64,000 nucleotides of DNA from positions 97,190 through 161,189 of the forward strand of contig CAMDSC010000001.1 in assembly GCA_945907065.1 (NCBI GenBank). The letters run 5' to 3'. Below are positions 3,697 to 54,327 of the stretch, one piece after another. The stretch's first letter is position 1; each line of letters opens with the position of its first letter. The stretch comes from Chitinophaga pinensis. GTDB taxonomy: Bacteria > Bacteroidota > Bacteroidia > NS11-12g > UBA9320. The position numbers and the translations under genes were made by a program. The notes under the pieces were generated by a model. The model worked only from the letters and a program-made list of their open reading frames with translations, did no database searches and was not told the DNA's origin.

Positions 3697-4875
3697 AGAC
3701 TTTACAGCATCTTCAAATACCGATTGAAGTATCGGTATATATCTACGATAATCAAATTGGGCTTGGGCAACTTGCCTCCCTTTTTGACCAATAGAATTAA
3801 AGGTATCGTAGTTTTTGTAACGGTTTATAATGGCATTTTTTAGTTCTTCTGTATTATCAGGTTCAATAAGGTAGCTATTTACATTATGCTCTAAGTAGTT
3901 TTCAATATCACCTACACGGGTGCAAATAGTTGGAATACCAGTTGCTAAATATTCGCCCAACTTAGTTGGAAACCCAAAATGAGAGTAACTGTGATTGGTT
4001 CGGTTCATCACCAACAAGTCACATTTATAAAGCCATTGCGGAACTTGCTCGTAGGTAATTTGGCCTGATTTTTCAACCTGTCCGTTCAACTTATTTTTTC
4101 TTAGTTCCAGATTTATTTCTCGCTTGTGAGGGTTAAAACCAATCAATTTAAGTTTTAAATCAGGAACATATTCTATGGCATTTTTAAAGCTTTTAATAAT
4201 TCCATAAACGCCGTCTTTTGAGCCAAAGGAACCCAAATAACCAACTGTATAGGATTTTGAATTATTTGAAACTTCTTTAAAACGATTAAAATCTACAATA
4301 ATAGGAATCAAAGTTATTTTGGAAGCAGGCAAATATTGACTGTAATAATCTTTTAGCTTTTCGGAAATAACAATTAAATGGCTGCAAACATATTTAAAAA
4401 TATAAGCATCCAATCGGTCGGCATAGCTAATTATTTTTGGTAAAATATTTTTAGTAGGTACACTTTCATCTAACTCTGTTTTTTCTAGTATTAACGGAAT
4501 CCGCAGGAGTTTAGCTAAAATGTAAATATGACCAAAGAATAGTAATCGCGGGCTGTATAAAAAAATAACGTCAAAGTGTTTTCGTTTTTTTACAAGTAAT
4601 ATTGAAGAGCAAAAAACAGCTTTTGTATACGCTAAAAATCGAATTATTAAATAGGGGCTTCTTAAAACTGAACCACTTAAATAATTGAAATAGATGCCAT
4701 CAAAAAAACCTTTATTTTTTTTATTAATTTTATTGTAATTGAAAATAGTAGAACTTAAAAAAAACAGAAAAACCTGATTGCCGTTTTCTTTTAGTCCATT
4801 GGCTAATGCTCGTAGCCTAGAATTGGCAGCATTTCCTTCCTGAAAATCAATATTTGAAAACCATGCAATTCTCAA
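3688..4875 (-). CDS. Glycosyltransferase family 4 (GT-B fold)
   Basis: 395 aa. The C-terminal half has the E(x7)E-type region FGFPTKLGEYLATGIPTICTRVGDIENYL typical of GT4. It is the last gene of the minus-strand polysaccharide operon. Confidence 0.8.
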   Translation of the reverse strand: MRIAWFSNIDFQEGNAANSRLRALANGLKENGNQVFLFFLSSTIFNYNKINKKNKGFFDGIYFNYLSGSVLRSPYLIIRFLAYTKAVFCSSILLVKKRKHFDVIFLYSPRLLFFGHIYILAKLLRIPLILEKTELDESVPTKNILPKIISYADRLDAYIFKYVCSHLIVISEKLKDYYSQYLPASKITLIPIIVDFNRFKEVSNNSKSYTVGYLGSFGSKDGVYGIIKSFKNAIEYVPDLKLKLIGFNPHKREINLELRKNKLNGQVEKSGQITYEQVPQWLYKCDLLVMNRTNHSYSHFGFPTKLGEYLATGIPTICTRVGDIENYLEHNVNSYLIEPDNTEELKNAIINRYKNYDTFNSIGQKGRQVAQAQFDYRRYIPILQSVFEDAVKSKK

Positions 4876-4876
4876 C

Positions 4877-5905
4877 TTAAATTTTATTCAGATCTCTTAA
4901 TTCGTAGATACGTTCAATAATATCAACTACTTTCAATCCTTCCAGAGCATTGGTATCAATCCGACTTTTACCATTAAGTGTGTCAATCACATTTTGAATT
5001 ACATAATGATGATTGGCGGCACTTCCTTTAAATGGCCCGTAATCATTGGGCGGATTAGTTTCGGGCAATTCAGGCAAAATGTAATCTTTTATATGACAAT
5101 ATTCCACTTCGTTTAGGTATTGGCCGCCAAGCTTGATACTGCCTTTGGAACCCACTGCTGTAATGCTGCTTTCCATATTGGTGTCCCAGCAGGAGGTTGA
5201 AAAATTAATACATCCCATTCCACCGTTTACAAATTCAAAATTTACAACCCCCGTGTCTTCGAACTCGGTTAATTGCTTATGAGTAGCATTTTTAAAGGTG
5301 GCATGAATGTTTTTTATATCACCAAATATCCAATACATAATATCAACAAAATGCGAAAATTGGGTGAACAAAGTTCCGCCATCCATTTTTAACGTTCCTT
5401 TCCAATCACCGGGTTTGTAGTAGCGTTCGTCACGGTTCCAATAGCAATTTACCTGAACCATAATTATTTCACCTAATGATTTATTATCGTAAACTTCTTT
5501 TAACCACTTTGATGGTGGACTGTAGCGATTTTGCTTAACAACAAATACATTTTTTGATTGTTGTAACGATTTAAAAATAACCCTTTCACAATCCGCTTTA
5601 GTTAAACCCATTGGTTTTTCAATAACCACATGCTTGCCATGTTCCAAAGCAAAAAGTGCAATTTCACAATGAAGTCCATTGGGAGCTGCTATATTTATTA
5701 CATCCACATCTGGTTCATTCATAATCATTTCTTTATAATCGGTATAAAAATGTGGATTAAGATTTAATTCATGAAGCTTTGATTCACGAGACGGCAAAAT
5801 GTCGCAACACGCTATAATTTCAGATTCGGGATGCTCGTGTGCAATTTTGGAATGGCGTAAACCAATATGACCCAAACCAACTACAGCAAATTTAATTTTC
5901 TTCAT
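4877..5905 (-). CDS. Gfo/Idh/MocA-family NAD-dependent sugar oxidoreductase (WbpB-like nucleotide-sugar dehydrogenase candidate)
   Basis: 342 aa with an N-terminal Rossmann motif KFAVVGLGHIGLRH and an EKP motif (VVIEKPMGL). Only 1 nt separates it from the downstream GT4 gene. Confidence 0.8.
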   Translation of the reverse strand: MKKIKFAVVGLGHIGLRHSKIAHEHPESEIIACCDILPSRESKLHELNLNPHFYTDYKEMIMNEPDVDVINIAAPNGLHCEIALFALEHGKHVVIEKPMGLTKADCERVIFKSLQQSKNVFVVKQNRYSPPSKWLKEVYDNKSLGEIIMVQVNCYWNRDERYYKPGDWKGTLKMDGGTLFTQFSHFVDIMYWIFGDIKNIHATFKNATHKQLTEFEDTGVVNFEFVNGGMGCINFSTSCWDTNMESSITAVGSKGSIKLGGQYLNEVEYCHIKDYILPELPETNPPNDYGPFKGSAANHHYVIQNVIDTLNGKSRIDTNALEGLKVVDIIERIYELRDLNKI

Positions 5906-6184: not shown

Positions 6185-6322
6185 CCGCTCAAAATGACCC
6201 CTCTTGTTCGGTCTAAATTGACCCCCACTGAAAATGGATGGTTGAATTGAGATTTTCGGTCAAAACTGACCCCCTCCATTCGGTCAAAACTGACCCCCCA
6301 TTTTCGGTTTAAATTGACCCCC
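6185..6322. repeat. Left-end multiple terminal repeats of the IS21 element
   Basis: Five copies of a 19-bp motif TCGGTYWAAAYTGACCCCC at 6185, 6208, 6256, 6280 and 6304. These are probable transposase binding sites, as in IS21 L1-L3. Confidence 0.8.
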
Positions 6323-6407
6323 TGATTTTTCAAAAAATCGAAATTAATACAAAAAATTTGATCCAAAACTGATTGGTTTTCATGCATTGTAATTTTTCTT
6401 GCAATGT

Positions 6408-7991
6408 ATGGCAAACAAACCAATCGACATGAACAAATTAAAACAAATTATTCAACTTAAACAGCAAGGCCATGGTTCGAAGCGCATCAGCTCAATCAGT
6501 GGCGTATCCCGGAATGTAGTAAAGCATTATCTCAAACGACTTGCTGAACTAAATATTCACACGGTGGATTTATTAAAGTTAAATGCAGAGGATCTGCAAC
6601 AATTATTTCAACCCTTTAAACACAAGCAGCTGCCAGATCCAGCCAGACACCTGAGGCTTGAAATCTTATTACCTTCTTTGGATAAGCAACTGCGCAAGCG
6701 TGGTATGACGCTTGAAAAGGTTTATTCTACCTATATTCAAAAAGACCCAATGGGTTATAGCCGAACACAGTTCTACAAATATGTTAGAGAATACCGGCAA
6801 TGCATGACAGGCATTAGTATGCATATTGACCACAAGCCGGGTGATAAGATGTATGTAGATTATACAGGAGAGAAAATGTCAATTATAGATCCCGAAACAG
6901 GCGAAGAAACAAAAGTAGAGGTGTTTGTAGCCATTTTGGGCTTTAGCCAACTGACCTATGTAGAGGCGTCAATGAATCAGAGTCTTTACGGCTTTGTTGA
7001 GTGTTGCAAAAATGCGTTGGAATACTTTGGAGGCACCCCTGCGCTTGTTGTACCAGATAATCTTAAGTCAGCCATAACCCAGAGCAGCAAGTATGAAGCG
7101 GTAATTAATGAAGTCTTTGCCGGTTTTGCGGAGCATTACAACACCAACGTATTGCCTGCACGTCCATACAAACCCAAAGACAAATCTTTGGTAGAGGGTG
7201 CAGTAAAACTTGTTTATCAGAGAGTATTTACGGAAACGGATCAGAAAGTATTCTTTACTCTAGAACAGCTTAATAAGGCAATAAAAGTAGCATTGAACGA
7301 ACATAACAATGCCCCTTTGCGTAAAGCCGAAAGCAGAAGAGAAGTTTTTGAAAATGATGAAAAATCAGTTTTAACACCTCTTCCTATCTTACCCTATTCG
7401 CCCAGTTATGTTAAGCAGTATAAAGTTACTAAAATGGGACATATACCACTTTATGAGGATAAGAAATATTATTCCGTTCCCTATCACTTGATTGGCAAAC
7501 GCGTAAAAGTCACCTATAACGCAACATGGGTCAGAATATATTATACTGACAAGGTAGTAGCAGAACACCAAAGGTGCTACACAAGGGCAACATACATTAC
7601 AAACAAAGAACATCTTGCCTCGAACCATCGCTTTATTACGGAGTGGAATCCTGAATTCTTTATAACTAAGGGTAATGAATTAGATATTGATGTCGGTGTT
7701 TTTCTAGAAAAGCTGATGCAAAGTAAAGGACATCCAGAACAAGGCTATAAGGCTTGTAGCGGCATACTAAACCTGGGGCGAAGGGTTGGAAAAGAAAGGA
7801 TTAAAAACGCCTGCTCTAAGGCTTATAATTTAGGTATATTTACTTATCACATTGTAGAGGAACTACTCAAAAAAGGTATTGAAAAAGATGACCCACATGA
7901 GGACCTGACCATCAGAGCAACACCCAGCCATAAAAATGTAAGAGGAAAGGCTTATTACACTAAATCAGAAACAAATTTAAACAACAAATAA
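6408..7991 (+). CDS. istA: IS21-family transposase IstA
   Basis: About 527 aa from ATG 6408 (the track start 6399 is TTG). It has an N-terminal HTH (GSKRISSISGVSRNVVKHYLKR) and a central DDE integrase-like region. It lies immediately upstream of istB, the classic IS21 layout. Confidence 0.9.
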   Translation: MANKPIDMNKLKQIIQLKQQGHGSKRISSISGVSRNVVKHYLKRLAELNIHTVDLLKLNAEDLQQLFQPFKHKQLPDPARHLRLEILLPSLDKQLRKRGMTLEKVYSTYIQKDPMGYSRTQFYKYVREYRQCMTGISMHIDHKPGDKMYVDYTGEKMSIIDPETGEETKVEVFVAILGFSQLTYVEASMNQSLYGFVECCKNALEYFGGTPALVVPDNLKSAITQSSKYEAVINEVFAGFAEHYNTNVLPARPYKPKDKSLVEGAVKLVYQRVFTETDQKVFFTLEQLNKAIKVALNEHNNAPLRKAESRREVFENDEKSVLTPLPILPYSPSYVKQYKVTKMGHIPLYEDKKYYSVPYHLIGKRVKVTYNATWVRIYYTDKVVAEHQRCYTRATYITNKEHLASNHRFITEWNPEFFITKGNELDIDVGVFLEKLMQSKGHPEQGYKACSGILNLGRRVGKERIKNACSKAYNLGIFTYHIVEELLKKGIEKDDPHEDLTIRATPSHKNVRGKAYYTKSETNLNNK

Positions 7992-7992
7992 A

Positions 7993-8727
7993 ATGAACGA
8001 ACAAACACTAGAAAAAATGAGCAGTATGCGCCTTTATGGTATGCAAAGAAGCTTCCGGCAAGTCGTTGACACGTCACGATTAAATGAATTAACAGCCGAT
8101 GAACTCGTTAGTCAATTGGTAGAAAGTGAATGGGATGACAGACATAATAGGGCTGTTGACCGAAGTCTTAAAAATGCAAGGTTCCGCTACAAGGCATCCA
8201 TTGAAATGATTGATTACTCCATCGACAGGGGCTTAGATCCAAATTTGATAAACAGGTTGGCAGAATGCACCTATCTGGATAATCACCAAAGTCTGATTAT
8301 TACAGGAAGCACAGGAACAGGCAAGAGCTTTATTGCTTCAGCTTTAGGCAACCAAGCCTGCTTAAAGGGCTATAAAGTTCTTTATGCTAACACAACCCGT
8401 CTGCTAAGTCAATTGAAACTCGCAAAGGCGGATGGTTCAAGTTTACAAGAACTAGCCAAAATTGAAAAACAGGATTTGCTAATATTAGACGATTTTGGAA
8501 TACAGCCTTTTGATGCTGCTGGTCGAATGATATTAATGGATATCATTGAAGACAGACATAGTAAGCGGTCCACAATAATTGCAGGTCAGATTCCAATAAG
8601 CGAATGGTATGATATCATTGGAGAAGGAACCTTAGCTGATGCTATTCTTGACCGTATCGTACATGAGGCTCATATGATCGAGTTAAAAGGTGAATCACTT
8701 CGCAGAAAAAAGAAACTTGATTTATAA
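7993..8727 (+). CDS. istB: IS21-family helper ATPase IstB
   Basis: 244 aa with Walker A GSTGTGKS and Walker B LLILDDFG, the IstB/DnaC-like AAA+ pattern. Confidence 0.9.
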   Translation: MNEQTLEKMSSMRLYGMQRSFRQVVDTSRLNELTADELVSQLVESEWDDRHNRAVDRSLKNARFRYKASIEMIDYSIDRGLDPNLINRLAECTYLDNHQSLIITGSTGTGKSFIASALGNQACLKGYKVLYANTTRLLSQLKLAKADGSSLQELAKIEKQDLLILDDFGIQPFDAAGRMILMDIIEDRHSKRSTIIAGQIPISEWYDIIGEGTLADAILDRIVHEAHMIELKGESLRRKKKLDL

Positions 8728-9877: not shown

Positions 9878-9881
9878 TTTA

Positions 9882-9957
9882 GGGTTGAGGGTTTTATGGT
9901 TTAGAAGTTTATGGTTTAGAAGTTTATGGTTTAGAAGTTTAGGGTTTAGAGGTGTTT
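9882..9957. repeat. Tandem array of a 15-bp unit GGTTTAGAAGTTTAT (5 units, the outer ones degenerate)
   Basis: Units at 9882, 9898, 9913, 9928 and 9943. The array fills the gap between the epimerase start (9877) and the 4HB gene and runs into its last codons and stop (9939-9941). Confidence 0.9.
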
Positions 9958-10310
9958 AAGCTATTTCTTAAACCGGAAAGTTTTGAGGCAATGCTATCTA
10001 TTAGTTCTCTAATGTTAGCAAGAGTAGCATCGGTAATGTAATTCAAATCTTTAGAAATAATTAGTTGATTTAATAATTCCATCATACTACTGTATGCAAT
10101 TTTATAAAAGTTCGCCTGATCTCGTTTTGTTGTCCTTCCTGAACCTTCTGCAATATTTGAACTAATGGAAATAGAAGCTCGTCTCATTTGATTTGTAAGC
10201 CCAAATACTTCATCAGAAGGAAAAAGTTTTGTTAATTTATAAATCAAGGTTACTAATTTTCTTGAATCTTGCCAAACAGTGAGTTTTTCAAATGAATATT
10301 CTTTTGCCAT
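9939..10310 (-). CDS. Four-helix-bundle protein (TIGR02436 / 23S rRNA intervening-sequence protein family, Avd-like fold)
   Basis: 123 aa. Shows FEKLTVWQDSRKL...QMRRASISISSNIAEGSGRTTKRDQANFYKIAYSSMMEL, the family's signature pattern. Confidence 0.8.
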   Translation of the reverse strand: MAKEYSFEKLTVWQDSRKLVTLIYKLTKLFPSDEVFGLTNQMRRASISISSNIAEGSGRTTKRDQANFYKIAYSSMMELLNQLIISKDLNYITDATLANIRELIDSIASKLSGLRNSLNTSKP

Positions 10311-10325
10311 TGGACCGTTAATTGC

Positions 10326-10462
10326 TTAGGGTTAATGAGTTTAGGGGTTTAGAAGTTTAAGGTTTATCGGTTTTAGAGAGGAGGGAATAAATTAATTTAA
10401 AATTTTGAGTTGAATTATAAACACTAAACCCAATAAACACTAAACCAGATAAACTCTAAACC
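10326..10462. repeat. Inverted pair of arrays of the 15-bp unit, forming a potential long hairpin
   Basis: Direct-orientation units lie at 10326-10380 (for example GGTTTAGAAGTTTAA at 10346-10360). After an AT-rich spacer of about 36 nt come three reverse-complement units ATAAACACTAAACC(C) at 10417, 10432 and 10447. Confidence 0.85.
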
Positions 10463-10465
10463 AAA

Positions 10466-11746
10466 TCAAAGACTCCCGTCAACTAAACTTCTATCCAGTA
10501 ATCCCTTTACATCAAAAATTACATGGTTTGTATTAAGATACTCAAGAATATTTAAATATTTAAACTCATTATGCCCTACTGCCATAATAATAGCATCAAA
10601 TTTACTATGAGCAGGCAATTCTTTGCGGGTGATTAAACCATATTCATGTTTTACTTCTGTCGGCTCTGCCCATGGATCAACAACGGTTAAGTTAACATGG
10701 TAGGTATTTAATTCATTAATGATATCGATAACTTTTGTATTGCGAACATCAGGGCAATTTTCTTTAAAAGTAAATCCTAAAACCAATATTTTAGCATCTT
10801 TTACTTTGATGTCCTTTTTAATCATTAACTTAATAGTTTCATTGGCAACATAGGCTCCCATGCTATCGTTTAATCTTCTTCCGGCCAAAATAATTTCAGG
10901 GTGATACCCAACCTCTTGCGCTTTTTGGGCTAAGTAGTAAGGGTCTACACCTATACAATGTCCACCAACCAAACCCGGTTTAAATTTTAGGAAATTCCAT
11001 TTGGTTCCTGCAGCTTCCAACACGTCATTGGTATTAATTCCCATTAGACTAAAAATTTTTGAAAGTTCATTTACAAACGCGATATTGATATCGCGTTGTG
11101 AATTTTCAATAACCTTGGCGGCTTCAGCTACCTTAATAGATGTGGCTTTGTGAGTTCCAGCAACTATAATAGTGCGGTATAAGTCATCTACTTTTTCTGC
11201 AATTTCGGGGGTTGAACCCGATGTTACTTTTAATATTTTAGTAACAGTATGCTCTTTATCTCCCGGATTAATTCTTTCAGGGGAATATCCTGCGAAGAAA
11301 TCGATGTTAAATTTTAATCCAGAAATTCTTTCTAATACCGGAATGCACTCATCTTCAGTTACCCCTGGATATACAGTTGATTCATATATAACAATATCTC
11401 CTTTTTTTAAAACTTTACCCACTGTTTCACTTGCTTTATACAGGGGAGTTAAGTCAGGGCGATTATTTCTATCAGTTGGTGTGGGAACGGTAACGATGTA
11501 ATAGTTACAATCTTTAATTTCATCCAATCGGGTTGTACATTTAAAACTGCCTATTTCACTTTTATTGGAGAGAACCTCTTTTAAATCTTCATTTTCTATT
11601 TCTAATGTTCTGTCAAACCCACTATTTAATTCATCCACACGTTTTTGATTGATATCAAACCCAACTGTGTGAAATTTTTTCCCAAACTCAATAGCTAAAG
11701 GTAAGCCAACGTAACCTAAGCCTATAATTCCAATTGTTTTGTTCAT
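10466..11746 (-). CDS. Nucleotide-sugar 6-dehydrogenase (TviB/WbpO/CapL-like UDP-GlcNAc/GalNAc dehydrogenase)
   Basis: 426 aa with [14 protein letters not shown] and the catalytic-Cys region [12 protein letters not shown]. Length and motifs match the UDP-glucose/GDP-mannose dehydrogenase family. Confidence 0.9.
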
Positions 11747-12126
11747 TAATTATTTAAAACTATTTTTTGTTCTTGAAAAAGTGATTTTTTAGATTTTGAC
11801 TTTTCATCAGCAGCTTTAATTGTTTTTCCTGATATAAGCATGCTTCCAATATAAGGTAAAAAAAGAGTGCCATTCTCATTTATAGTAATTCCTGTGTTGG
11901 TACTAAATTCATTAACTAATGCCGTATTATTGGAATTGAATTTAAATCCTAATATATCTCCTGCCTGAATTACATGGTCTACAGTATTTTCATGTTTTGC
12001 TAATTCAATATTGGAATATTTGCTGTTAGAGTTGTCTTTCTCTTGGAAATAAATCAATCTTTTGCCACATGAAGAAAATACAATGGCAAATACTATGATG
12101 ACTGATAGTCGAATGGTTTTAGTCAT
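11746..12126 (-). CDS. Short Wza-like polysaccharide export lipoprotein (Poly_export N-domain only, probably truncated)
   Basis: 126 aa with lipobox [16 protein letters not shown]...[21 protein letters not shown] matches the Poly_export motif, but no SLBB domain follows. It overlaps the dehydrogenase start by 1 nt. Confidence 0.55.
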
Positions 12127-12129
12127 TTT

Positions 12130-12630
12130 TTATTTTTTAACGGGCAAAGGTAACACTTTATTTATTGGAACATCAGCCACTAAAGAACAGCCTAGAGATT
12201 CAATTATGATTTTTACTTTATTTTTTCCAATTTTAATAATCTTTCCAATTTGATTCGTCATTGGGCCACTTTGGATTTTAACAGAACTGTTTATTTCAGG
12301 GGTAAATTCCTGAACTTCAATATTTTCATAATTTCCCAAAAAATGCTTTATAATTTCTATTTCTTGGTCTCTTATTACCGCCGGTTGACCAAGCCAATAT
12401 ACAAAGTTTAATACACCTTTTGTTTCTCTCACTTTTGGCTTTTCATCCTCTACAATATGAGCAAAAACATACGACCTGAATAAAGGCTCATCTACCATTT
12501 TTTTTCGGTCGCTCCATTGCTTCATCGTTTTATGAAGCGGTAAGTAGTTTTCTATATTTTGATCAGTTAGCAAGGATGCAACCTTCTTTTCGTTTCGCGA
12601 CAGAACATAAATAGCAAACCATTTTTTCAT
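12130..12630 (-). CDS. UpxY-family (NusG-like) transcription antiterminator
   Basis: 166 aa. The NGN-like N-terminus KKWFAIYVLSRNEKKV...PLFRSYVFAH, the KOW-like C-terminus and its position at the head of a polysaccharide operon match Bacteroides UpxY. Confidence 0.8.
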   Translation of the reverse strand: MKKWFAIYVLSRNEKKVASLLTDQNIENYLPLHKTMKQWSDRKKMVDEPLFRSYVFAHIVEDEKPKVRETKGVLNFVYWLGQPAVIRDQEIEIIKHFLGNYENIEVQEFTPEINSSVKIQSGPMTNQIGKIIKIGKNKVKIIIESLGCSLVADVPINKVLPLPVKK

Positions 12631-12641
12631 TATAAAAGGTA

Positions 12642-12666
12642 AAAGTTTAAAGTAGAAAGTTTAAAG
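12642..12666. repeat. Left arm of a 25-nt inverted repeat (AAAGTTT AAAGTAG AAAGTTT AAAG)
   Basis: Its reverse complement matches 13055-13079 at 24 of 25 positions. It is built from heptad words. Confidence 0.9.
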
Positions 12667-12676
12667 AGATCACTTC

Positions 12677-13036
12677 TCATTTTTTGACAGAAGTTTTTGA
12701 ATAAATACTTCCTAAAATATTCATTAGTTCAAAGGATTCTGACTTAAGTGGTAGCCAATCTGAATTATCATCAGTTATTTCTATAACCAGTCTAATCCAA
12801 TAATTAGATTCACGCATTTCCTTTAATGAGATGCCAACTTTATTAGCAAAGTCTGGTCTCGATACAGCACTTTGTGCCTCTTCATAATTTGCTCCTGAAG
12901 AAGTAGAAGATTTCGTTAATTGGTAATTTATAACATCATATTCTTTACCTTTAGGGAGCTTTCGAATCAACGATATAACATTTACTGCAAACTGAAATAA
13001 CCTTTTTTGTAAATCGTTTTTATCAAAATCTAACAT
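12677..13036 (-). CDS. Four-helix-bundle protein (TIGR02436 / 23S rRNA IVS protein family), divergent second copy
   Basis: 119 aa. Shows YQLTKSSTSSGANYEEAQSAVSRPDFANKVGISLKEMRESNYWIRLV, the family signature (QL.rS.tSigANy.EA...S..DF..K..I..KE..Et.YWl). Confidence 0.8.
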   Translation of the reverse strand: MLDFDKNDLQKRLFQFAVNVISLIRKLPKGKEYDVINYQLTKSSTSSGANYEEAQSAVSRPDFANKVGISLKEMRESNYWIRLVIEITDDNSDWLPLKSESFELMNILGSIYSKTSVKK

Positions 13037-13054
13037 GAAATTATCCTTTTCTTA

Positions 13055-13079
13055 CTTTAAACTTTTTACTTTAAACTTT
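13055..13079. repeat. Right arm of the 25-nt inverted repeat
   Basis: CTTTAAACTTTTTACTTTAAACTTT has one mismatch to the reverse complement of 12642-12666. Confidence 0.9.
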
Positions 13080-13137
13080 ATCCATTTCTTCCAAAGCTTC
13101 GCCACCTCAGTCACAGAGTACTAAGTGCTATTTTTTA

Positions 13138-13161
13138 TGTAAAAAAGCCTTTTTAGGCTTT
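13138..13161 (-). terminator. Weak rho-independent terminator overlapping the regulator stop codon
   Basis: The minus strand reads AAAGCC-TAAAA-GGCTTT followed by TTT. The 6-bp stem is short. Confidence 0.35.
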
Positions 13162-13680
13162 ACTCCAGAGAAGTAAAGAAGGCTCCAATTTATTACTATC
13201 TACAAGTGATTCAACCTCACTTAGTAATTCAATTTTTAGTTTTTTATTAATGGTTTTTTCTACCTTTTGAACCAATTCTTCAAGGTAGTCTTTATCTACA
13301 TTTCCTGAAATTTTAAGCTCGATAGTATCACTGTTTAGCCCACGGGCCAAATTCCCTACCAACCAAACATGGTCAGGTTCACCAAGTTTTGAAACAATGG
13401 AATCAATAATTCTATCAATACCAACATACTTTCTGATAATTGAATTTATTTCAGGGTAAAGTGGATGCTTGGTATTGGCTTTAAAAATTTTTTTGTTGCT
13501 TTCAGAATAGGAATTTAAAAGACCTGATTCTTCAAATTTGTTAAGTTCCAGTCTAATAGAATTGGTGCTTTCTCCAAATTCAGCTTCAAGATTTCTGAGA
13601 TATGCTGTATTGCTGGAGTTCAAAAAGAACTTAAGCAAGAGTTTGATTTTCGTTTTAGAAGATACCAAAGAATCTAGCAT
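13153..13680 (-). CDS. Winged-helix (ArsR-like) DNA-binding protein with an unassigned C-terminal domain
   Basis: 175 aa. The N-terminus KTKIKLLLKFFLNSSNTAYLRNLEAEFGESTNSIRLELNKFEESGLL looks like a wHTH. The C-terminal half is unassigned. Confidence 0.45.
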   Translation of the reverse strand: MLDSLVSSKTKIKLLLKFFLNSSNTAYLRNLEAEFGESTNSIRLELNKFEESGLLNSYSESNKKIFKANTKHPLYPEINSIIRKYVGIDRIIDSIVSKLGEPDHVWLVGNLARGLNSDTIELKISGNVDKDYLEELVQKVEKTINKKLKIELLSEVESLVDSNKLEPSLLLWSKA

Positions 13681-13794
13681 AGTTAAAATTGAGTAGCAAA
13701 ACTACTCATTATCGATTTAAAACCCAAATGTAATAGATTATTTTAAGGTTATTGTTTTGTCAGATTATTACAAAGGTTTAATCAAAACAGAATT

Positions 13795-15435
13795 CTACCT
13801 AACTCCGCCCATCATCTTTTTTAATTGTGGTGAAATAAGTATGAGTATTACACCTGAAATTAATGCTATATAACCAATGCTTTCATAACCACTCGTGTAT
13901 TGCATTAATTTTTGATAATTGGTTGGGTTTTCAATTGAATTATCACCTTTTGCTAAGGTAGCACCGATTAATCCGGCTCCGTATTGTCCATAAGCACTTG
14001 CCAAAAACCATGTTCCCATCATCACTCCATGCAATCGGGTTGGAGATAATTTGGTAACCATAGATAAACCGATAGGAGAGAGGCAAAGTTCACCAAGGGT
14101 TACTATTAAATAAGCAAAAATAAATGTCCATATTGGCGTTATTCCGTTTGGATTAGCAAAAAATTTACTGGAGTAAAATATGAGGAACCCTAGGCCAAGA
14201 AATATAAATCCATATCCAAACTTTACAATCATGTTAGGCTCTTTATTTTTCTTATTTAAATACAACCAAAATAAACCAATAATTGGAGCTAAAAGTACGA
14301 CCCATAAGGCATTGATGGAATTGTTAACTGAAGTCATATTCAATCCATTGCTTTCCACGTTTCCTACGGCAAAAAAGTTTAACGAACCTCCACCTTGTTC
14401 AAAGAACGACCAAAAAACAACTGAGAATAATATTAAAATACCGGCAACTGTTAATTTGCGGCCTTCTTCCTTAGAAGCAGTCCTTATCTGGTATACAATA
14501 TAACCGATGGTGAAAACGGCAGCTAATAAAAATATTAAATCGGTTAAACTCAAAGTAATGGAACCAAGATTAATATCCATTGGATAATATACAAAAAGAA
14601 AGAAAAGGGGTATTAGAAGCAAGGTGGCTGCATGTATCAAGACTCCGCGATTAATACCTGCCACTTTTTTATTTAGTTTTTCGGGATAAGGGACTAAACC
14701 AATTGGGCCCAATGTTTTTTGAGTGAATACAAATAATCCTAAACCAATGAGCATACAAACTCCAGCTAATGCAAAACCTAAAGACCAGCTAATAGATGTG
14801 CCAATATAGGCAATGATTAAACCACTTAATAATGCCCCAATGTTAATACCTGAATAAAATAGTGAAAAACCTGCATCCCTTCTGGGGTCACCTTCCTTAT
14901 ATAAGCTGCCAACCATTGTGGAAATATTGGGTTTGAAAAATCCGTTGCCTACTATAAGGATACTTACTCCGGCATAAAAGGCAAAACTTCCGGGAATAGC
15001 CATTAAAAAAGTTCCTATGGCCATTAATATTCCGCCCCAAAAAATGGAACGGCGAAATCCAAATAATTTATCAGCAAACAAACCGCCAATAAATGCCATG
15101 GCATAAATAAATGCCTGAATGGTTCCGTAGCGTTTATTGCTTATTGCTTCAGCGTCGTCTCTATATTTTTGTTCTGAGGTTCTGATGTAATACTGAGGAT
15201 GTTTTTCATTCAATATTTCAGCATTACTTACTTCAAATTCTTTAACAATTTTGGCCTTTTCGGTGGCATTTACTGAATGATAATCCACCGATAATATTAA
15301 ATGTGAAATATAAAGTCCCAGTAAGGCTCGCATACCATAAAAGGTAAATCGTTCCCACATTTCTATTAAAAATAAATACCAAAGTTGTTTTGGGTATTTG
15401 CCTTTAAAATTTTGAATTTCTTCTACTGTTAGCAT
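13795..15435 (-). CDS. POT/PTR2-family proton-dependent di/tripeptide transporter
   Basis: 546 aa, polytopic. Shows PTR2 signatures EMWERFTFYGMRALL and GGLFADKLFGFRRSI. Confidence 0.9.
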   Translation of the reverse strand: MLTVEEIQNFKGKYPKQLWYLFLIEMWERFTFYGMRALLGLYISHLILSVDYHSVNATEKAKIVKEFEVSNAEILNEKHPQYYIRTSEQKYRDDAEAISNKRYGTIQAFIYAMAFIGGLFADKLFGFRRSIFWGGILMAIGTFLMAIPGSFAFYAGVSILIVGNGFFKPNISTMVGSLYKEGDPRRDAGFSLFYSGINIGALLSGLIIAYIGTSISWSLGFALAGVCMLIGLGLFVFTQKTLGPIGLVPYPEKLNKKVAGINRGVLIHAATLLLIPLFFLFVYYPMDINLGSITLSLTDLIFLLAAVFTIGYIVYQIRTASKEEGRKLTVAGILILFSVVFWSFFEQGGGSLNFFAVGNVESNGLNMTSVNNSINALWVVLLAPIIGLFWLYLNKKNKEPNMIVKFGYGFIFLGLGFLIFYSSKFFANPNGITPIWTFIFAYLIVTLGELCLSPIGLSMVTKLSPTRLHGVMMGTWFLASAYGQYGAGLIGATLAKGDNSIENPTNYQKLMQYTSGYESIGYIALISGVILILISPQLKKMMGGVR

Positions 15436-42539: not shown

Positions 42540-42544
42540 TTACA

Positions 42545-42581
42545 AATGGTTAGTGGTTAATTGTTAATGATGAATTAAAAG
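42545..42581. repeat. Heptad-word array AATGGTT AGTGGTT AATTGTT AATGATG AATTAAA
   Basis: Period-7 near-repeats lie directly after the stop of the 41253-42539 gene. The gene's last codons (NTNTNQR) are themselves repetitive. Confidence 0.6.
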
Positions 42582-54290: not shown

Positions 54291-54327
54291 TTAATTACGA
54301 ATTAAGAATTAGGAATCAGGGATTTCT
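54291..54327. repeat. Heptad-word array AATTACG AATTAAG AATTAGG AATCAGG
   Basis: It starts directly after the dapD stop. The AATNNNN words lie in the opposite orientation to the array at 53390-53427. Confidence 0.6.

Follow-up and report, generated by a model that had tools for sequence, protein, structure and literature searches.

One polysaccharide locus of Chitinophaga pinensis raises the question of why a small gene lies just upstream of upxY, enclosed by a long inverted repeat. The stretch analyzed here, called the window, comprises 64,000 nt of contig CAMDSC010000001.1, and the enclosed gene encodes a four-helix-bundle (4HB) protein. With moderate confidence, we read the insert as one copy of a family of 4HB cassettes of about 0.45 kb. 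It sits in a polysaccharide operon leader, preceded by an ops-like motif and followed by upxY, and its arms would pair in the transcript as an RNase III substrate, as in the intervening sequences (IVSs) of ribosomal RNA (rRNA). The features of the locus, from upstream to downstream in gene sense, are as follows.

13092..13115, minus strand: ops-like motif, 24 nt, T-GTGACTGAGGT-GGCGAAGCT-TTG, 4 nt upstream of the 5' arm, on the upstream side of the insertion site
13055..13087, minus strand: 5' arm (gene sense), an array of 7-nt words, AAATGGATAAAGTTTAAAGTAAAAAGTTTAAAG; 24/25 core at 13055-13079
12677..13036, minus strand: 4HB gene, 119 aa, in the loop; PF05635 (23S_rRNA_IVP) E 6e-13, TIGR02436 'four helix bundle protein' E 6e-20
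12634..12666, minus strand: 3' arm (gene sense), CTTTAAACTTTCTACTTTAAACTTTTACCTTTT; core at 12642-12666; stops 3 nt short of the upxY start codon
12130..12630, minus strand: upxY, the next gene, a NusG-paralog antiterminator; NF033644 131.6 bits, cutoff 100

The original prediction described a 25-mer inverted repeat with one mismatch, and this was confirmed: AAAGTTTAAAGTAGAAAGTTTAAAG (12642-12666) and CTTTAAACTTTTTACTTTAAACTTT (13055-13079) are reverse complements that match at 24/25 positions, with a single mismatch. A repeat search extended them to arms of 33 nt (12634-12666 / 13055-13087), 88% complementary and 388 nt apart, and the whole cassette measures 454 nt (12634-13087). The enclosed open reading frame (ORF) was found as described, 119 aa at 12677-13036(-), on the same strand as upxY and with 10 and 18 nt of slack. 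Tandem Repeats Finder gave a period of 7/14 in each arm, in agreement with the heptad words proposed for both. The pair is the longest inverted repeat of the window and the only one of 25 nt with at most one mismatch inside 1 kb, and second-order Markov simulations of the window (n = 150) yielded 0 comparable repeats. The 9-mer AGTTTAAAG occurs three times forward and twice reverse in the window, with 4/5 of these copies inside the arms. When 12620-13100(-) was folded with RNAfold, as had been suggested for the stem closing a 388-nt loop, the long stem was closed in both the minimum free energy (MFE) and the centroid structure (z = -2.7; 0/100 shuffles equally stable). The duplex of the arms alone was calculated at -26.3 kcal/mol.

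The 119-aa protein has about 2000 relatives at E <= 1e-5, many of them 65-80% identical. We took 80 genomic loci from Bacteroidales, Prolixibacteraceae, Marinifilaceae, Flavobacteriia, Saprospiraceae and Ignavibacteria/Melioribacter, 67 of which were usable. Since RNAduplex on 130-nt flanks returned about -35 kcal/mol for purine-rich/pyrimidine-rich pairs even when they were shuffled, its energies were uninformative, and ungapped match scores were used instead. Arms scoring at least 12 were present in 56/67 usable loci, spanning Bacteroidota and Ignavibacteriota, with a median arm length of 32 nt. The upstream words included AAAGGTT, AAAGGAT, AAAGGCG, AAAGGCT, AAATGAT and CAAGGAA, and varied between loci; the downstream array consisted of their reverse complements. 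Complementarity was higher within loci than between loci (p = 7e-13), and identical words were found on both arms in 46/58 loci compared with 24% of cross-locus pairs. In eight loci with two cassettes, the arms scored a mean of 14.0 with their own partner and 8.3 when swapped (p = 1.6e-4); a genome-wide vocabulary of words therefore fails to explain the match. The original prediction was to fall if the arm sequence proved to be a common low-complexity word with no preferential pairing around ORFs. Such words are indeed common intergenically, but the preference of the arms for their own partner around the ORF shows that the second half of this description does not apply.

The two arms also differed consistently in composition. 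The 5' arm was purine-rich in 55/56 loci, with a median C content of zero, and the 3' side was pyrimidine-rich. Because an inverted repeat reads alike on either strand, this purine-first polarity is a real constraint, and it may fit a role at the RNA level.

Three loci (L036, L049 and L064) were syntenic with the window, sharing POT transporters, a 175-aa ORF, the cassette and upxY at about 78% DNA identity. The words had changed on both arms, from AAAGTTT/AAACTTT in the window to AAAGGTT/AACCTTT in L049, and the arms of L036 paired at 19/20 positions in a shifted register. The L036 ORF contained a nonsense codon at position 15 and was otherwise 95% identical, with the arms still complementary. 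The L049 ORF was broken by a frameshifting 49-nt insert (4222-4270) with its own short inverted repeat, and its arms matched at 26/32 positions. Both loci come from metagenome-assembled genomes, which calls for care in interpreting a single nonsense codon. As judged from these alignments, the arms stay complementary while their sequence changes, which is shown by the syntenic loci; the same comparison suggests that the stem would be kept for the sake of the host once the insert is present. The broken ORFs resemble the reductive evolution of S23p in Coxiella (PMC4990558).

In three paralogous pairs (L054/L060, L011/L012 and L016/L017), the copies shared 80-88% identity across the span bounded by the two arrays, in otherwise unrelated surroundings. 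Since the homology runs from array to array between unrelated flanks, the cassette is a discrete unit that moved, and these alignments show a bounded unit at unrelated sites. No target-site duplication was seen at the junctions of the three pairs, and the cassette contains no transposase domain and does not qualify as an insertion sequence (IS) or a miniature inverted-repeat transposable element (MITE). Copies at least 88% identical were mostly in orthologous contexts, and several 80-88% pairs were in unrelated ones. One identical protein was present on 24 contigs, always in the order yebC-like gene, 4HB gene, beta-lactamase-family gene, and no relative of this 4HB subfamily was detected among IMG/VR viral contigs. 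Recent transposition was rejected on these two grounds. In a single natural population (L201-L210, identical protein, same context), the 5' array carried either 2 or 3 copies of AAGGTTA, and the arrays therefore change by whole words.

The upstream neighbor was co-oriented with the cassette in 63/65 loci, compared with a background of 84% (p = 0.0013), and the downstream neighbor in just 37/63, which is below background (p = 1e-6). The cassettes therefore sit behind a gene able to supply transcription, often at the end of the unit. About a third of the neighboring genes belonged to nucleotide-sugar or polysaccharide functions, and the rest were diverse. In five Marinifilaceae loci (L035, L038, L040, L041 and L052), the cassette directly preceded the RNase P RNA gene, with both on one strand; the RNA was confirmed with Rfam in L035, L040, L041 and L052, and assigned in L038 by near-identity to L035. 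In L040, arrays of (CTCCTTT)n and (AAAGTAT)n flank the RNase P gene itself.

The upstream side of the insertion site is marked by the ops-like motif, which reads TGTGACTGAGGTGGCGAAGCTTTG on the non-template strand and has the general form T-GTGACTGA-NNN-GGCGAAGCT-N-T-R, with no variation among the three syntenic loci. When metagenomes were scanned with GTGACTGANNNGGCGAAGCT, at least 120 stretches of 25-72% G+C matched (L081-L200). Among the matches listed, T was present at -1 in 112/116 and at +21 in 104/116, neither of which was part of the search pattern, and the matches are therefore homologous. The motif stood very often directly before or just after a gene for an UpxY/NusG paralog among these matches, and in 19 loci an UpxY-type gene started 0-150 nt past it, often abutting; these are empty sites. 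4HB cassettes of differing subfamilies and words followed the motif in the window, L036, L049, L064, L133, L162, L102 and L151, and a looser form preceded the cassette in L013, L047, L008 and L054. Leaders that follow the motif often carried tandem 6-8-nt arrays without a 4HB gene. No Rfam model matched the motif. Its 3' half resembles the RfaH ops element, and the GCGAAGC within this half is a stable DNA mini-hairpin. The motif is probably a recruitment/loading or pause site for UpxY-type antiterminators, and it could define their long-sought recognition element across phyla.

The cassette appears to leave no room for a promoter of its own and would be transcribed by read-through with the host operon. 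The arms would then pair in the operon transcript into a duplex of 25-33 bp, with the ORF looped out and the flanking host RNA brought together. A perfect duplex of at least 20 bp is a substrate for RNase III. The predicted duplex would be long enough, and cleavage would yield an ORF-carrying RNA of roughly 0.4 kb. With only 3 nt between the 3' arm and the upxY ATG, the paired stem would mask the region where upxY translation begins, which would become accessible once the stem had melted or been cleaved. More speculatively, the polarity of the arms might matter during transcription, as the C-free arm would emerge first and make a poor Rho site, and the C-rich arm would be paired once made. For the regulation of capsule and O-antigen, this would mean that a structured insert of 450 nt separates upxY from the site where UpxY probably loads, and that the stem takes in the start region of upxY.

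Several observations weigh against pairing and cleavage in the transcript. Arm mismatches comprised 32 of the G.U type and 32 of the A.C type, with no G.U excess, and duplex energies were alike for the sense and antisense strands (p = 0.21); neither test gave a signal of selection acting on the sense RNA rather than on the DNA. The arms of L040 and L030 were poorly matched, and those of a second 4HB cassette in the window (9878-10465, described below) scored just 9.5 ungapped. Of the 239 arrays detected in 545 kb of fetched loci, compared with 5 in shuffles, 88 were not beside a 4HB gene, and others were found in operon spacers of the window, so that arrays may function without pairing. The stem is A-U-rich and closes a 388-nt loop that may be under translation, so its formation might be intermittent. 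Across the family, strong purifying selection acts on the 4HB ORF (median dN/dS 0.10, 69 pairs), which is by this measure clearly functional; a purely selfish, inert insert would have no need of such selection. Co-transcription and RNase III cleavage are what we infer for this cassette, and excision by RNase III is plausible.

The cassette was compared with the ORF-bearing 23S rRNA IVSs of Leptospira, Coxiella burnetii, Brucella and Xanthomonas, and with PF05635 insertions in rRNA genes of the candidate phyla radiation. In Coxiella, the IVS is 428-444 nt long and has the S23p ORF in its loop; the 28-bp stem, perfect except for one mismatch and a bulge, is cut midway by RNase III (PMC4990558). 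The cassette shares with these elements a PF05635/S23p ORF in the loop and in host sense, the total size, and a terminal stem that spans about 25-30 bp and has one or two imperfections; its 24/25 core and 33-nt arms provide the stem of at least 20 bp that characterizes ORF-bearing IVSs. A sporadic distribution, with reductive evolution of the ORF in some lineages, is also common to both (PMC4990558; 10.1101/2024.02.27.582315), as similar cassettes occur in unrelated contexts and 19 motif-upxY loci are empty. The cassettes differ in their host, which is the leader or spacer of protein-coding operons or the flank of RNase P RNA, and in an ORF that is under strong purifying selection in most lineages. 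The cassette arms are tandem heptad arrays with a fixed polarity, purine then pyrimidine. RNase III cleavage has been demonstrated for rRNA IVSs and is only predicted for the cassette.

An rRNA IVS is defined by its location in helix 9, 25 or 45 of 23S rRNA. The flanks of the cassette are the 175-aa ORF and upxY, and no Rfam family reached the gathering threshold anywhere in the 64-kb window; around the cassettes, the Rfam matches were only at chance level. The proposed likeness to ORF-bearing rRNA IVSs thus stood for stem, size, PF05635 ORF and sense orientation, and did not stand for the host RNA. Judged from these features, the cassette is similar to an ORF-bearing rRNA IVS yet lacks the rRNA location that defines one. 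On the reading we favor, the rRNA IVSs would belong to a wider cassette family with the same logic, as its representatives in rRNA. No paper in the searched literature ties non-rRNA PF05635 genes to flanking inverted repeats or heptamer arrays. PF05635 proteins are among the commonest small 'hypothetical' proteins of Bacteroidota and Cyanobacteria, and recent papers call them uncharacterized. If PF05635 genes generally travel bracketed by a stem, rRNA IVSs would be one habitat of a broader class of in-transcript elements, and this would provide a testable handle on the spread of IVSs, the role of the protein and the purpose of intergenic heptamer arrays.

Alternatively, the arms may act on DNA, as the termini of a cassette that moves or recombines. 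They might serve an unknown enzyme as terminal inverted repeats, or supply portable homology through which the cassette recombines into spacers that already carry arrays. Common descent and exchange between the two arms would then maintain complementarity, and any pairing of the transcript would be incidental. We regard this as possible, although distinctly less likely than an RNA stem. The homology of paralogs starts and stops exactly at the arrays, the mismatches lack strand asymmetry, arrays change by whole units beside an identical protein (2 or 3 AAGGTTA), and the arms of syntenic loci switched words together, as concerted evolution would give. Solo arrays and ORF-less hairpins elsewhere could be landing sites or remnants. 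Such hairpins, formed by some solo arrays (L054 1140-1345, L076 4686-4768 and L063 7590-7843), also have a parallel in ORF-less IVSs. However, no transposase, integrase or recombinase is encoded in or beside the cassette, the IS21-type element at 6190-8727 being separate, and the junctions have no visible target-site duplication. Identical proteins in one context only argue against recent movement, and viral contigs held no relatives. The purine-first polarity (55/56) and the 97% upstream co-orientation are not expected of a signal that works on DNA alone. All the data would fit arms that serve movement or recombination, and such a role does not exclude an RNA stem; rRNA IVSs are both mobile and processed.

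MITEs and integron gene cassettes are likewise small promoter-less units that end in inverted repeats or a folding recombination site and lie co-oriented in host transcription units. The 4HB cassettes differ from them in having no target-site duplication and no nearby integrase, in repeats that flank the ORF on both sides, and in tandem word arrays. Repetitive extragenic palindromic (REP) sequences, their paired form (REPINs) and the associated RAYT genes offer another likeness, a gene between inverted short repeats that recur alone or as hairpins in other spacers. RAYTs are IS200/IS605-type transposases, and the comparison is an analogy from general knowledge. There is no homology between the two systems, and several 4HB cassettes with different words can share one genome. 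In a bolder and rather improbable version of this analogy, 4HB cassettes and heptad arrays would be one self-propagating system in which solo arrays and ORF-less hairpins are non-autonomous and a 4HB pentamer acts in trans, binding the hairpin and driving its spread or RNA processing, as RAYT does for REPINs. The rRNA IVSs would be the subset that landed in rRNA, and the preference for rRNA, RNase P RNA and UpxY operons would reflect a need for Rho-protected transcription units.

Slightly less credible still is the proposal that the arrays are single-stranded 'heptamer spacer' signals, bound by a protein such as S1, a cold-shock protein or the 4HB pentamer, that set the translation or stability of the flanking genes and match each other through a shared genome vocabulary. 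Avd, a relative of the 4HB protein, binds nucleic acid and a reverse transcriptase, which lends this proposal some support, as does the purifying selection on the 4HB protein. The solo arrays (88/239), the window arrays at 42541-42570 and 54291-54320, and the motif-following leaders with 6-8-nt arrays and no 4HB gene also favor it. Heptamer direct repeats (TAACTGA and related) are documented in Beggiatoaceae, Cyanobacteria and some Bacteroidetes, where they stand in tandem upstream of start codons; their function is unknown, and a post-transcriptional role has been proposed (PMC4679880). Like these repeats, which occupy spacers, mostly in one orientation and just before start codons, with varying copy number (PMC4679880), the 5' arm is a tandem intergenic 7-nt array that faces a start codon, ending 18 nt before the 4HB ATG. 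The documented repeats differ in being direct (with one inverted case), in using other words and in not being tied to PF05635 or to paired arms (PMC4679880). Within one genome, the arms fit their own cassette and not the neighboring one: those of the first cassette scored 23 with each other and 7-9 with the arms of the second. A shared vocabulary leaves unexplained why the 3' array is always a reverse complement and never a direct copy, with 55/56 polarity, and the 24/25 match goes far beyond the sharing of words. A supply of stop codons in all three frames was also considered for the heptads and rejected (16/56 observed, 12.5 expected).

The last explanation, a chance product of A+T-rich, low-complexity intergenic DNA, could appeal to the 34.7% G+C of the window and the simple arm sequences, but with 0 comparable repeats in 150 simulations and with arms kept in syntenic and dozens of unrelated loci it is refuted and has a negligible probability.

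By profile, the 119-aa protein matched PDB 2RLD, a five-chain entry for an uncharacterized protein, and we know of no catalytic activity of a 4HB protein. Avd/bAvd proteins of diversity-generating retroelements (DGRs) have a related four-helix-bundle fold and family. Avd-type profiles matched only the second 4HB protein of the window, and weakly (PF22296 and NF033474; NF033474 17.9 bits against a cutoff of 80, the other 21.6 against 40). The neighbors, namely upxY, the 175-aa ORF, the UDP-glucose dehydrogenase and the epimerase, include no reverse transcriptase, and no template/variable repeat pair was seen, although no specific search for one was made. PADLOC defence-system models did not match either 4HB protein. 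By these comparisons, the cassette is not a DGR, IS, MITE or known defence system. A sigma-70 promoter and terminator scan of 12500-13800 gave nothing useful, and such a scan does not cover Bacteroidota promoters.

A second, looser cassette occupies 9878-10465 of the same polysaccharide locus, wedged between the UDP-glucose dehydrogenase stop codon and the epimerase start codon, and its arrays are of the GGTTTAG/CTAAACC type. Its features are as follows.

10417..10465, minus strand: 5' array of the second cassette, TTGGTTTAGTGTTTAT x3; begins directly after the UDP-glucose dehydrogenase stop codon
10326..10378, minus strand: internal array, located between 5' array and ORF; its complementary words are of the CTAAACC type
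9939..10310, minus strand: second 4HB gene, 123 aa; PF05635 E 2e-36, TIGR02436 E 8e-35
9878..9950, minus strand: 3' array of the second cassette, CTTCTAAACCATAAA x4; overlaps the ORF end and stops 1 nt before the epimerase start codon

The MFE fold paired the outer arrays of the second cassette (9878-9950 with 10417-10465), with bulges. The bulges and the weak ungapped match arise because the periods of the two arrays differ (15 and 16). From its complementary words, the internal array (10326-10378) could be an alternative pairing partner for the 5' array. Among canonical-type 4HB cassettes, the ungapped arm score was above all shuffles in 8/15, and these scores are low because the arrays have unequal periods and need gapped pairing.

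Short C-poor heptad arrays were also found in the window at 42541-42570 (ATGGTTA GTGGTTA ATTGTTA) and 54291-54320 (AATTACG AATTAAG AATTAGG AATCAGG). They fill spacers of co-oriented genes, starting at or just after the upstream stop codon, and have no 4HB gene.

Upstream of the first cassette, the 175-aa protein (13153-13680(-)) had no Pfam match and gave a match to the PADLOC candidate family PDC-M05A (E 1.6e-17). Its homologs often adjoin upxY and the ops-like motif in metagenome loci (e.g., L099, L129, L158 and L185). Downstream of upxY, the interval up to the dehydrogenase gene (11746-12126) holds just a 126-aa fragment of Poly_export (Wza-like); at the Poly_export position, the syntenic L036 and L049 carry roughly 2.9 kb of additional sequence (ORFs of 250 aa and 824 aa). 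By this comparison, the window locus has apparently lost wzc entirely and wza for the most part. Also within the polysaccharide locus, the IS21-type element (6190-8727) encodes an IstB of 244 aa (PF01695, E 3e-65) together with an IstA-like transposase of 530 aa (rve, Mu-transposase C). Ahead of the element stand 4 or 5 copies of CGGTCAAAACTGACCCCC, similar in appearance to the multiple terminal repeats known from IS21.

Proteins of 122-128 aa formed a subtype (L003, L007, L009-L012, L014-L017, L019, L021, L022 and L025) with a conserved leader of about 90 nt in the loop (TTGGTTTTCTAAGTTATTTTCCGTAACTTATTAGGAAAACT-ATG), possibly an internal promoter. In this subtype, the inner end of the stem is a conserved GGGGACTCC / GGAGTCCCC pair. 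Beside the cassette of L037, two copies of the Acido-Lenti-1 RNA motif (5834-5878 and 6251-6295; 40.1 bits, gathering threshold 37) lie within a segment that is itself repeated and has AAGGTTAAAGG arrays at its borders. In the loops of ORF-less hairpins and near cassettes (L054 1190-1225, upstream of the L054 cassette, and L116), a G+C-rich hairpin that reads CCCCTCC(N)GGAGGGG and then TTAGGGGTGGG was seen repeatedly; it may be another repeated intergenic element of these genomes.

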